Positions 15,140 through 39,852 of a DNA stretch of 64,000 nt are shown here, piece after piece. Position 1 is the stretch's first letter. Every line of letters starts with the position of its first letter. Source of the DNA: Eledone cirrhosa (Eukaryota); the NCBI GenBank assembly GCA_964016885.1, contig OZ024743.1, positions 190,402,001-190,466,000 on the forward strand, written 5' to 3'. The notes under the pieces were generated by a model that saw nothing but the letters and a program-made list of their open reading frames with translations, was not told where the DNA came from and made no database searches. A program made the translations under genes and the position numbers.

Positions 15140-18100
15140 TACTTAAATGTAAGTATGTATGTATACGTACATACATATATGTATACAGACGTACAGTAGC
15201 ATGCATATATATATATATACACACACATATATATATATATATACATATATATATACACACACACATACACATATGCATACAGGTACACATACATATATGC
15301 ACGCATCAGTTTAGCCGGCGTTTATTATAACGCAGGCCGCTTTGTTCGTTTGTTTGTCAACAAAGCGAACGGCCTGAATTTATGCCATACGGTGTTAAGG
15401 CAACCACGTCACCTTTTTGTTCAACACTGACACAGGAACGATGTACTAGTTTCAAGCTTGTTAGCTATCATCAGCACCGTTTACCCATCTGCCAGATAGT
15501 TGAACATTCGAAAGTATATCCTTTCCTTATGAAAATTAACGGCTGAGCAGCCTAATTGCATATTGAGTGAGTTAAATCGGTCAGGCATACCGAAAACGAT
15601 AAGTTGAAAAAAATGAAAACGAAATTTCATTTCTCACTCTTAGTATGGCACTTACTTAAATGTAAGTATGTATGTATACGTACATACATATATGTATACA
15701 GACGTACAGTAGCATGCATATATATATATATACACACACATATATATATATATATACATATATATATACACACACACATACACATATGCATACAGGTACA
15801 CATACATATATGCACGCATCAGTTTAGCCGGCGTTTATTATAACGCAGGCCGCTTTGTTCGTTTGTTTGTCAACAAAGCGAACGGCCTGAATTTATGCCA
15901 TACGGTGTTAAGGCAACCACGTCACCTTTTTGTTCAACACTGACACAGGAACGATGTACTAGTTTCAAGCTTGTTAGCTATCATCAGCACCGTTTACCCA
16001 TCTGCCAGATAGTTGAACATTCGAAAGTATATCCTTTCCTTATGAAAATTAACGGCTGAGCAGCCTAATTTGCATATTGAGTGAGTTAAATCGGTCAGGC
16101 ATACCGAAAACGATAAGTTGAAAAAAATGAAAACGAAATTTCATTTCTCACTCTTAGTATGGCACTTACTTAAATGTAAGTATGTATGTATACGTACATA
16201 CATATATGTATACAGACGTACAGTAGCATGCATATATATATATATACACACACATATATATATATATATACATATATATATACACACACACATACACATA
16301 TGCATACAGGTACACATACATATATGCACGCATCAGTTTAGCCGGCGTTTATTATAACGCAGGCCGCTTTGTTCGTTTGTTTGTCAACAAAGCGAACGGC
16401 CTGAATTTATGCCATACGGTGTTAAGGCAACCACGTCACCTTTTTGTTCAACACTGACACAGGAACGATGTACTAGTTTCAAGCTTGTTAGCTATCATCA
16501 GCACCGTTTACCCATCTGCCAGATAGTTGAACATTCGAAAGTATATCCTTTCCTTATGAAAATTAACGGCTGAGCAGCCTAATTTGCATATTGAGTGAGT
16601 TAAATCGCTCAGGCATACCGAAAACGATAAGTTGAAAAAAATGAAAACGAAATTTCATTTCTCACTCTTAGTATGGCACTTACTTAAATGTAAGTATGTA
16701 TGTATACGTACATACATATATGTATACAGACGTACAGTAGCATGCATATATATATATATACACACACATATATATATATATATACATATATATATACACA
16801 CACACATACACATATGCATACAGGTACACATACATATATGCACGCATCAGTTTAGCCGGCGTTTATTATAACGCAGGCCGCTTTGTTCGTTTGTTTGTCA
16901 ACAAAGCGAACGGCCTGAATTTATGCCATACGGTGTTAAGGCAACCACGTCACCTTTTTGTTCAACACTGACACAGGAACGATGTACTAGTTTCAAGCTT
17001 GTTAGCTATCATCAGCACCGTTTACCCATCTGCCAGATAGTTGAACATTCGAAAGTATATCCTTTCCTTATGAAAATTAACGGCTGAGCAGCCTAATTTG
17101 CATATTGAGTGAGTTAAATCGGTCAGGCATACCGAAAACGATAAGTTGAAAAAAATGAAAACGAAATTTCATTTCTCACTCTTAGTATGGCACTTACTTA
17201 AATGTAAGTATGTATGTATACGTACATACATATATGTATACAGACGTACAGTAGCATGCATATATATATATATACACACACATATATATATATATATACA
17301 TATATATATATATATACATATATATATACACACACACATACACATATGCATACAGGTACACATACATATATGCACGCATCAGTTTAGCCGGCGTTTATTA
17401 TAACGCAGGCCGCTTTGTTCGTTTGTTTGTCAACAAAGCGAACGGCCTGAATTTATGCCATACGGTGTTAAAGCAACCACGTCACCTTTTTGTTCAACAC
17501 TGACACAGGAACGATGTACTAGTTTCAAGCTTGTTAGCTATCATCAGCACCGTTTACCCATCTGCCAGATAGTTGAACATTCGAAAGTATATCCTTTCCT
17601 TATGAAAATTAACGGCTGAGCAGCCTAATTTGCATATTGAGTGAGTTAAATCGGTCAGGCATACCGAAAACGATAAGTTGAAAAAAATGAAAACGAAATT
17701 TCATTTCTCACTCTTAGTATGGCACTTACTTAAATGTAAGTATGTATGTATACGTACATACATATATGTATACAGACGTACAGTAGCATGCATATATATA
17801 TATATACACACACATATATATATATATATACATATATATATACACACACACATACACATATGCATACAGGTACACATACATATATGCACGCATCAGTTTA
17901 GCCGGCGTTTATTATAACGCAGGCCGCTTTGTTCGTTTGTTTGTCAACAAAGCGAACGGCCTGAATTTATGCCATACGGTGTTAAGGCAACCACGTCACC
18001 TTTTTGTTCAACACTGACACAGGAACGATGTACTAGTTTCAAGCTTGTTAGCTATCATCAGCACCGTTTACCCATCTGCCAGATAGTTGAACATTCGAAA

Positions 18101-20045
18101 GTATATCCTTTCCTTATAAAAATTAACGGCTGAGCAGCCTAATTTGCATATTGAGTGAGTTAAATCGGTCAGGCATACCGAAAACGATAAGTTGAAAAAA
18201 ATGAAAACGAAATTTCATTTCTCACTCTTAGTATGGCACTTACTTAAATGTAAGTATGTATGTATACGTACATACATATATGTATACAGACGTACAGTAG
18301 CATGCATATATATATATATACACACACATATATATATATATATACATATATATATACACACACACATACACATATGCATACAGGTACACATACATATATG
18401 CACGCATCAGTTTAGCCGGCGTTTATTATAACGCAGGCCGCTTTGTTCGTTTGTTTGTCAACAAAGCGAACGGCCTGAATTTATGCCATACGGTGTTAAG
18501 GCAACCACGTCACCTTTTTGTTCAACACTGACACAGGAACGATGTACTAGTTTCAAGCTTGTTAGCTATCATCAGCACCGTTTACCCATCTGCCAGATAG
18601 TTGAACATTCGAAAGTATATCCTTTCCTTATGAAAATTAACGGCTGAGCAGCCTAATTTGCATATTGAGTGAGTTAAATCGGTCAGGCATACCGAAAACG
18701 ATAAGTTGAAAAAAATGAAAACGAAATTTCATTTCTCACTCTTAGTATGGCACTTACTTAAATGTAAGTATGTATGTATACGTACATACATATATGTATA
18801 CAGACGTACAGTAGCATGCATATATATATATATACACACACATATATATATATATATACATATATATATACACACACACATACACATATGCATACAGGTA
18901 CACATACATATATGCACGCATCAGTTTAGCCGGCGTTTATTATAACGCAGGCCGCTTTGTTCGTTTGTTTGTCAACAAAGCGAACGGCCTGAATTTATGC
19001 CATACGGTGTTAAGGCAACCACGTCACCTTTTTGTTCAACACTGACACAGGAACGATGTACTAGTTTCAAGCTTGTTAGCTATCATCAGCACCGTTTACC
19101 CATCTGCCAGATAGTTGAACATTCGAAAGTATATCCTTTCCTTATGAAAATTAACGGCTGAGCAGCCTAATTTGCATATTGAGTGAGTTAAATCGGTCAG
19201 GCATACCGAAAACGATAAGTTGAAAAAAATGAAAACGAAATTTCATTTCTCACTCTTAGTATGGCACTTACTTAAATGTAAGTATGTATGTATACGTACA
19301 TACATATATGTATACAGACGTACAGTAGCATGCATATATATATATATACACACACATATATATATATATATACATATATATATACACACACACATACACA
19401 TATGCATACAGGTACACATACATATATGCACGCATCAGTTTAGCCGGCGTTTATTATAACGCAGGCCGCTTTGTTCGTTTGTTTGTCAACAAAGCGAACG
19501 GCCTGAATTTATGCCATACGGTGTTAAGGCAACCACGTCACCTTTTTGTTCAACACTGACACAGGAACGATGTACTAGTTTCAAGCTTGTTAGCTATCAT
19601 CAGCACCGTTTACCCATCTGCCAGATAGTTGAACATTCGAAAGTATATCCTTTCCTTATGAAAATTAACGGCTGAGCAGCCTAATTTGCATATTGAGTGA
19701 GTTAAATCGGTCAGGCATACCGAAAACGATAAGTTGAAAAAAATGAAAACGAAATTTCATTTCTCACTCTTAGTATGGCACTTACTTAAATGTAAGTATG
19801 TATGTATACGTACATACATATATGTATACAGACGTACAGTAGCATGCATATATATATATATACACACACATATATATATATATATACATATATATATACA
19901 CACACACATACACATATGCATACAGGTACACATACATATATGCACGCATCAGTTTAGCCGGCGTTTATTATAACGCAGGCCGCTTTGTTCGTTTGTTTGT
20001 CAACAAAGCGAACGGCCTGAATTTATGCCATACGGTGTTAAGGCA
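15140..20045 (-). mobile_element. Retrozyme-like tandem array, family A left arm: about 9.5 copies of a 514-bp monomer with a hammerhead on the minus strand
   Basis: 514-bp period (e.g. 16118, 16632; 17678, 18192). One unit has an 18-bp expansion and there are a few SNPs. Hammerheads start at 15437, 15950, 16464, 16978, 17510, 18024, 18538, 19052 and 19566. Confidence 0.9.
15437..15481 (-). ncRNA. Type I hammerhead ribozyme, family A (first of 9 minus-strand copies)
   Basis: Minus strand reads AACGGTG CTGATGA T AGCT AACA AGCT T GAAA CTAG TA CATCGTT. Confidence 0.92.
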
Positions 20046-39700: not shown

Positions 39701-39852
39701 AATGAAACGCGTAGATTACTTCCCTTGCTTTTATCGAGAATCTAATTGTAATACGTGACGTATTCTATTCTATAGCGATTAGGTCTTCAAAATGTTTATT
39801 ATAAACATACAGAATATTTTCGAATATTCTATGTCTATATTCACATATATAT
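33787..39852 (+). mobile_element. Retrozyme-like tandem array, family B right (inverted) arm: about 19.6 copies
   Basis: Reverse complement monomer. Twenty hammerheads from 33787 to 39677, every 310 bp. The arm ends in (TA)n. Confidence 0.92.
34097..34139 (+). ncRNA. Type I hammerhead ribozyme, family B (representative of 20 plus-strand copies), predicted cleavage after GUA at 34133
   Basis: Helix I GUAGUC/GAUUAC, extended by the 16-bp stem AUUCUCGAUAAAAGCA/UGCUUUUAUCGAGAAU. Core CUGAUGA, helix II UUCU-AACA-AGAA, GAAA, palindromic helix III ACGCGU. Confidence 0.94.

Follow-up and report, generated by a model that had tools for sequence, protein, structure and literature searches.

Arrays A and B, two families of hammerhead ribozyme repeats in the genome of Eledone cirrhosa, have inserted into (TA)n as head-to-head pairs in which one arm bears a short and the other a long outer end, and we put at roughly 70% the probability that this was the work of a PLE enzyme that used a single RNA to prime from both strands of a cut. 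Observed directly were the array geometry, the pair of fixed ends, the haplotypes common to partner arms, microhomology at the junctions and the recurrence of this signature in two families of autonomous PLEs. The original prediction held that two target-primed events, from both sides of a break in (TA)n, had copied an RNA many times and that the two cDNAs were then joined. This prediction is supported in part. The locus survey, the junctions and the non-nested arms make two joined priming events the best reading, now sharpened: each event would have a fixed start site of its own, and the RNA haplotype would be common to both. The template may or may not have been a circle, and an endonuclease cut may take the place of the break; that all of the array length arose at insertion is doubtful, as variants recur periodically within some arms.

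Self-comparison of the window, a stretch of 64,000 nucleotides of contig OZ024743.1, revealed two inverted pairs of tandem arrays. The left arm of array A (15140..20045, minus strand) shows about 9.5 units of 514 bp, and its outer end, predicted to be a long one with TTCAAC running into TA, lies in an assembly gap of 200 N (14940..15139) that covers the left end of the array. The right arm (20043..22153, plus strand) holds 4.1 units, overlaps the left arm by 3 nt at the junction (GCA, 20043..20045) and has its short end, at unit position 294 past the ribozyme cut, in a degenerate (TA)n tract (22152..24054). Array B starts from a (TA)n tract at 30440..30468. Its left arm (30467..33779, minus strand) comprises 10.7 units of 310 bp with a long end at unit position 165 and a 69-nt re-copy at 31014-31154; its right arm (33786..39852, plus strand) comprises 19.6 units and has a short end at unit position 131-139, which runs into a (TA)n tract at 39845..39912. 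The arms of B are separated by a 6-nt templated insertion, TAGTCC (33780..33785), a repeat of the right arm's start. All hammerhead cores in the window (13 in A and 30 in B) point outward, and the predicted divergent inverted pairs, their unequal arms, the position of both central junctions and the merging of the three visible outer ends into TA tracts were confirmed. Microhomology of these outer ends with (TA)n had also been claimed. It is substantial at the short end of B (8-9 nt of ATATATAT), but the other ends share only 1-3 nt with (TA)n, a match that carries little weight because it is nearly unavoidable given the AT-rich RNA. The window also contains the 3' terminus of an autonomous PLE from the very young 1217-aa ORF family (14077..14939, minus strand; 98% to locus L096), which ends in the long TA tract, and an older degenerate PLE (24050..26590, minus strand) with a GIY-YIG-like frame at 25491-25940 and its 3' end within the TA tract.

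Judged from sequence, A and B are hammerhead-bearing non-LTR retrozymes, real and genome-wide. A motif scan with paired stem I detected a type I hammerhead core in every full unit of the window, examples being 20280..20324 in A and 34096..34140 in B (both plus strand; helix III palindromes ACTAGT and ACGCGT; predicted cuts after 20317 and 34133). A Rfam gathering search gave no match. In both cores helix III is palindromic and helix II starts from a T-T pair at its base, which resembles the axolotl retrozyme motifs with their palindromic helix III tetraloop and U-U at the helix II base (PMC7229834). Axolotl motifs of this type work best as dimers (PMC7229834), and for A and B the isolated monomer core is predicted to adopt a fold other than a hammerhead, with the dimer more stable; the units are predicted to fold stably (z about -5). 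At least 8,299 exact motif copies of A and at least 17,245 of B were counted genome-wide, so that both are dispersed over many loci, as non-LTR retrozymes are, and with 514 and 310 bp their units lie within the size range of tandem non-coding retrozyme units (about 150-1000 bp). The A and B units examined contained no ORF, which separates them from autonomous PLEs with RT and GIY-YIG in the unit, and their type I cores in multimeric arrays distinguish them from plant LTR retrozymes, whose two LTRs each contain a hammerhead of type III. Family C, the third with a hammerhead, has a unit of 466 bp and was found at one locus. B had been considered as a rare, newly arrived family; this was dropped, the list of 18 candidate loci being a strong undercount relative to 17,245 copies. 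Multiplying motif count by unit length, A and B amount to roughly 4 Mb and 5 Mb of young inverted repeats, and such arrays are easily taken for satellites or fold-back artefacts.

Outward polarity and TA flanks recurred throughout the genome survey. The position-ordered sample took all loci that fell within the first 100 places listed for either motif and spanned 32 A insertions (C1:1-80 Mb) and 17 B loci (C1:1-36 Mb); a similarity-picked B set covered 17 of 18 candidates including the window and shared one locus with the ordered set. Among the ordered A insertions 18 were head-to-head, one was complex and 13 were one-armed (two touching gaps), the ordered B loci comprised 13 head-to-head and four one-armed cases (one touching a gap), and 14 loci of the similarity-picked set were two-armed. 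One-armed cases make up about a third of insertions, and tail-to-tail joins were absent among the surveyed A and B loci. The outward polarity of the window holds for two-armed B insertions at 26 distinct loci and for two-armed A insertions at 24 other loci. Outer ends ran into alternating TA in 52/59 cases for B and 46/50 for A, as compared with a TA background of 16% of positions across these TA-rich loci and of 1% at 40-64 kb of the window. Polarity is hence not random and flanks are mostly TA (98/109 outer ends together), in line with the original prediction; its more general statement that PLE insertions are often inverted and that some clades are biased to microsatellites is already in the literature (PMC3846280, PMC8557442). 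A candidate target-site duplication of about 31 nt was seen at only one of the loci inspected (L003), duplications being unreadable in pure TA, and a local search for empty sites returned microsatellite matches only. Extra inversions were present at three loci (L005, L020 and L115).

The outer ends obey a strict rule. Counted from the ribozyme cut, they fall at 126-139 (short) or 160-172 (long) in B and at 292-301 (short) or 350-358 (long) in A, i.e. at two fixed RNA sites 30-80 nt apart, corresponding to the Penelope 'tail'. One short and one long end were combined in 64 of 66 two-armed insertions from five families, and neither short+short nor long+long pairs occurred (0/66), although independent end choice would predict about half of the pairs to be like-ended. 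The rule held for 26/26 B loci, for 22 of the 24 A loci with both ends visible (16/18 ordered, 6/6 picked), for 11/11 pairs of the PLE with the 1217-aa ORF (PLE-1217; 16 loci, eight of them picked since both arms were already visible), for 4/4 pairs among ten loci of the PLE with the 719-aa ORF (PLE-719) and for the single C locus (1/1). The two A exceptions, L031 and L050, each have one non-standard end.

In the mechanism that we propose, a PLE RT-endonuclease dimer would bind the RNA at its tail region and cut both (TA)n strands. One 3'-OH would prime at the short site and the second at the long site, which lies 30-80 nt further 3'. On either side the RNA would be copied 3' to 5' with the trailing RT displacing the leading cDNA, and on a circle or an uncleaved multimer each RT could pass the ribozyme site repeatedly. 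Synthesis would halt at unrelated points and the cDNA ends would be joined via microhomology of 1-6 nt or through a few templated bases inserted between them. At one-armed loci one side may have failed or been lost later, and subsequent unequal exchange would give some arms extra units.

The arms cross the ribozyme site repeatedly and just 1 of 52 B arms has its inner end within 5 nt of the ribozyme cut, with no pile-up there, which argues that the template was not a cut monomer; as template, a circle and an uncut multimer both fit the B arms. The number of units is not simply a count of RT rounds, since private variants recur every four units at L008, every five at L009 and every ten in the right B arm of the window, where a two-base variant is seen again 10 units apart. 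Some of the length would thus come from a multimeric template, from misassembly or from blocks that were duplicated once the array was in place; the variants speak for the last of these, which would take in about 10 units of the right B arm in the window. Taken further, short PLE-type insertions of about one unit per arm could have grown entirely by unequal crossover and without repeated copying at insertion, as has been suggested for retrozymes (bioRxiv 10.64898/2026.07.22.740005). Besides the periodic variants, the microsatellite length of A units, which varies within loci, speaks for such growth. We nevertheless consider it unlikely, since long arms are uniform for the most part, multimers stand on both sides of the junction at most loci, and the lengths of B arms outside the window (median 1.3 kb, range 0.2-4.5 kb) match those of autonomous PLE cDNAs (0.4-4.7 kb). 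Growth of this kind would be compatible with twin priming for the ends.

Partner arms share haplotypes. In B they had the same haplotype at 14/14 loci (six haplotypes; 22% chance match per locus), and at the remaining B loci the arms agree wherever a variant falls in both; position 209 was discounted as a marker because it reverts repeatedly inside a quasi-palindrome. For A, where 21 of 23 loci had enough overlap for comparison, partner arms differed at 0-5 sites, as against means of 3-21 for other arms, and the partner was the nearest or tied arm in 16/21. Partner arms of PLE-1217 had private variants in common and showed 0-1 differences over about 900 sites in 9/11 pairs, the exceptions being L108, which differs at four sites, and L112, which is too short for the compared stretch. 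Matching haplotypes may reflect a single molecule, but could also stem from a source that dominates in each cell or from conversion between arms. Two primings on two separate RNAs, with arm identity stemming from one dominant source RNA per cell or from gene conversion, would dispense with strand displacement, two RNAs could be carried by a dimer, and one molecule and one pool are inseparable by sequence alone. This explanation seems improbable to us: by itself it leaves the 0/66 like-ended pairs unexplained, and the finding of locus-private variants in both arms (L006, L099, L100, L119, L122, L123) together with unit-private variants confined to one arm argues against active conversion.

Fold-back or self-priming, in which one cDNA or antisense RNA is copied back and an endonuclease then resolves the product at a second fixed site, accounts directly for shared private variants and is the published reading: the head-to-head form was explained by self-priming on an antisense template (PMC3846280), and Craig 2021 ascribed the tail to endonuclease resolution (PMC8557442). 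It predicts nested arms. In PLE-1217, however, the short-end arm extends further 5' in 6/11 pairs and the tail is on the other arm only; in five of those pairs both arms are shorter than one period of 4,136 bp and neither contains the other, which excludes simple fold-back in 5/11 pairs. The long-end arm of B is longer in just 8/14 cases, and junction offsets are mostly hundreds of bases. Near-palindromic junctions (within about 10 nt) were found in 6/50 cases (about 2.8 expected), palindromic ones at L003, L023, L025, L057 and L118, and fold-back may account for such a minority. The non-nested pairs contradict it as a general mechanism, a role in which we regard it as very improbable, and the non-nested arms, the shared haplotypes and the strict end rule favour two primings on one RNA. 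Nine of 38 junctions carried inserted bases, and 26 of the 29 insert-free ones overlapped by at least 1 nt versus 47% expected (p about 2e-6), a figure that matching against all arms may inflate slightly. An assembly artefact from fold-back or chimeric reads, to which the gap abutting array A and a misjoin behind the 10-unit recurrence might point, has next to no likelihood given that five families, at 66 loci spread over many contigs, show these ends and this pairing, and that the junctions have microhomology and templated insertions between unequal, non-nested arms.

Two autonomous PLE families of this genome, PLE-719 and the very young PLE-1217, thus show the short+long signature, and the retrozyme arrays bear the insertion signature of PLEs active within one genome. 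No Pfam family was found for three PLE ORFs and a PDB sequence search returned nothing; their assignment as PLEs is based on RT and GIY-YIG-like motifs visible in the ORFs, on a relative of 41% identity that carries PF01541, and on the pLTR structure. These PLEs may be termed 'Neptune-like' and 'Poseidon-like'. No clear sequence in common was found between A/B and PLE-1217 or PLE-719, nor did A/B clearly match the pLTRs of the three PLE families examined among the many in the genome. By eye, the A/B ends resemble those of PLE-719 (ACAT short, TT(T/C)CAA long), a weak likeness that does not establish the partner. Loci L027 and L058 were rejected as retrozyme-PLE chimeras, the adjoining ORF pieces being old broken copies.

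In L1 twin priming, a single RNA is primed by two 3' ends of the target, and microhomology joins the cDNAs into an inversion. The second L1 primer lands well upstream and there is mostly no overlap between the two parts, whereas the starts found here lie within 80 nt of each other and the same sequence is copied.

In endonuclease-positive PLEs, as in A and B, head-to-head 5'-truncated copies, a microsatellite bias, a tail of 30-40 bp on one end and multicopy non-autonomous elements such as MRC1 have been described (PMC3846280, PMC8557442). Arkhipova 2013 found head-to-head to be the commonest PLE form, with the tail on one inverted pLTR (PMC3846280); Craig 2021 reported the (TA)n bias and multicopy non-autonomous elements and called the mechanism open (PMC8557442), and the formation of tandem and inverted insertions and of the tail is named unresolved in PMC8557442 and PMC11167929. 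These accounts, in their available portions, are qualitative with an 'optional' tail, whereas the rule here is strict (64/66, none alike) with tails of 30-80 nt and non-nested arms. In vitro, the Anolis Poseidon PAc, a predicted dimer, cut and extended both strands of an AT-rich target (Frangieh 2024, PMC11167929), starting at two internal sites that bound the tail; uncut RNA was the main substrate and no RNA-seq ends lay at the ribozyme cut. PAc agrees with our model in the extension of both strands and in two start sites, but no difference in start site between the strands was seen, which counts against strand-specific start sites, and the available parts of that paper do not address a joined two-armed product or a multimeric template.

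Metazoan non-LTR retrozymes similarly consist of tandem non-coding units, each with a type I hammerhead, have low GC and share their genome with PLEs (PMC7229834; bioRxiv 10.64898/2026.07.22.740005). They are described as head-to-tail arrays in the available parts of these sources, the word 'inverted' occurring 0 times in those of PMC7229834, as opposed to A and B, which are two-armed and whose ends in (TA)n are fixed and of PLE type. Rolling copying of circles into tandem cDNA by a PLE RT was proposed by Cervera and de la Pena 2020 (PMC7229834). Li et al. 2026 linked retrozymes to pLTRs, with PLE pLTR homology in 24/57 Xenopus families, and favoured local amplification (bioRxiv 10.64898/2026.07.22.740005). 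Mobilisation of retrozymes by PLEs has so far been based on co-occurrence and pLTR similarity. Earlier publications thus cover the head-to-head form, the one-sided tail, the bias to microsatellites and the link between retrozymes and PLEs, and the strict short+long pairing and the twin-priming argument appear to be new: the pairing rule, inverted retrozyme arrays and PLE twin priming were not found in the literature covered, outside which lie the supplements (Figure S9 of PMC7229834, S1-S2 of PMC11167929), Arkhipova 2006 and Evgen'ev and Arkhipova 2005, which may bear on this. Two further sources (10.1101/2022.05.23.493040 and PMC8969392) held, in their available parts, nothing decisive for the PLE/retrozyme question.

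Tentatively, and at somewhat less than even odds, we extend twin priming to head-to-head PLE insertions generally: one dimer would have its subunits committed to two start sites of one RNA, and with retrozyme RNA as a circle the two RTs would chase and displace each other, delivering a multimer into each side. If true, the short+long rule would be a genomic record of that asymmetry, which thousands of young loci allow to be measured. The system combines short RNA substrates (310 nt) and a simple target with start sites that are mapped and candidate enzymes that are intact.

The B unit was also present in 20 of the 24 listed public runs, labelled as 18 organisms from 17 studies, with no RNA run among those listed; a metagenome pattern scan gave 0 matches. 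In the four runs examined it formed a single 331-340 nt contig, 99% identical, at a depth of 10-128 and self-closing in three. Horizontal spread or circular RNA was not accepted as an explanation, as trace DNA of the same or a related species gives such a loop; closed contigs are uninformative on circles because 17,000 tandem DNA copies produce the same loop. The run variants 209C, 287A and 295G all occur in this genome as well.

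Among the TA tracts of the window are a degenerate (TA)n tract of 13 kb with repeated blocks (847-14077) and another of 1.9 kb (22152-24054). Three different ends of the type found in Penelope-like elements (PLEs) are anchored in these tracts, which suggests that the tracts kept growing while repeatedly taking insertions.

Elsewhere in the genome, locus L023 (1908-8002) carries one insertion each of the hammerhead retrozyme arrays A and B with 110 bp between them. The flanks of A at this locus are short inverted copies of one another, and the same holds at L017. One A array spanning L082 (1-9910) together with L055 exceeds 17 kb, with a single arm within the fetched stretch. 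The left arm of B in the window contains a 69-nt re-copy (31014-31154) that lies exactly two units from the arm start and adjoins the long start site, possibly due to stalling of the reverse transcriptase at a bound complex. The B unit (window 34134-34443) was matched at about 99% in public runs labelled as 18 organisms. This is most simply explained by trace DNA of a high-copy repeat; the unit may also be common to several species. A third array family with a hammerhead, C (L080, 7229-10000; L097, 1-1306), has a 466-bp unit about 65% similar to that of A and is likewise arranged head-to-head with short and long ends.

A very young PLE family (window 14077-14939; loci L096 and L099-L114) has a period of 4,136 bp and an ORF of 1217 aa, the protein being 99-100% identical among many copies. 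Its terminal repeat (pLTR) has a hammerhead-like core, and the ORF contains an asparagine-rich insert similar to those of Adineta Penelopes. The second young family (L086-L095), with a 719-aa ORF, several intact copies and a 77-nt tail, is a candidate partner of A and B, judged by end motifs only.

The window also contains a direct repeat (26588-27203 and 28152-28791), whose copies of about 620 bp match at 82% and show inverted similarity internally, and broken LINE reverse transcriptase fragments (43114-43509 and 49958-51312; Pfam zf-RVT, RVT_1).
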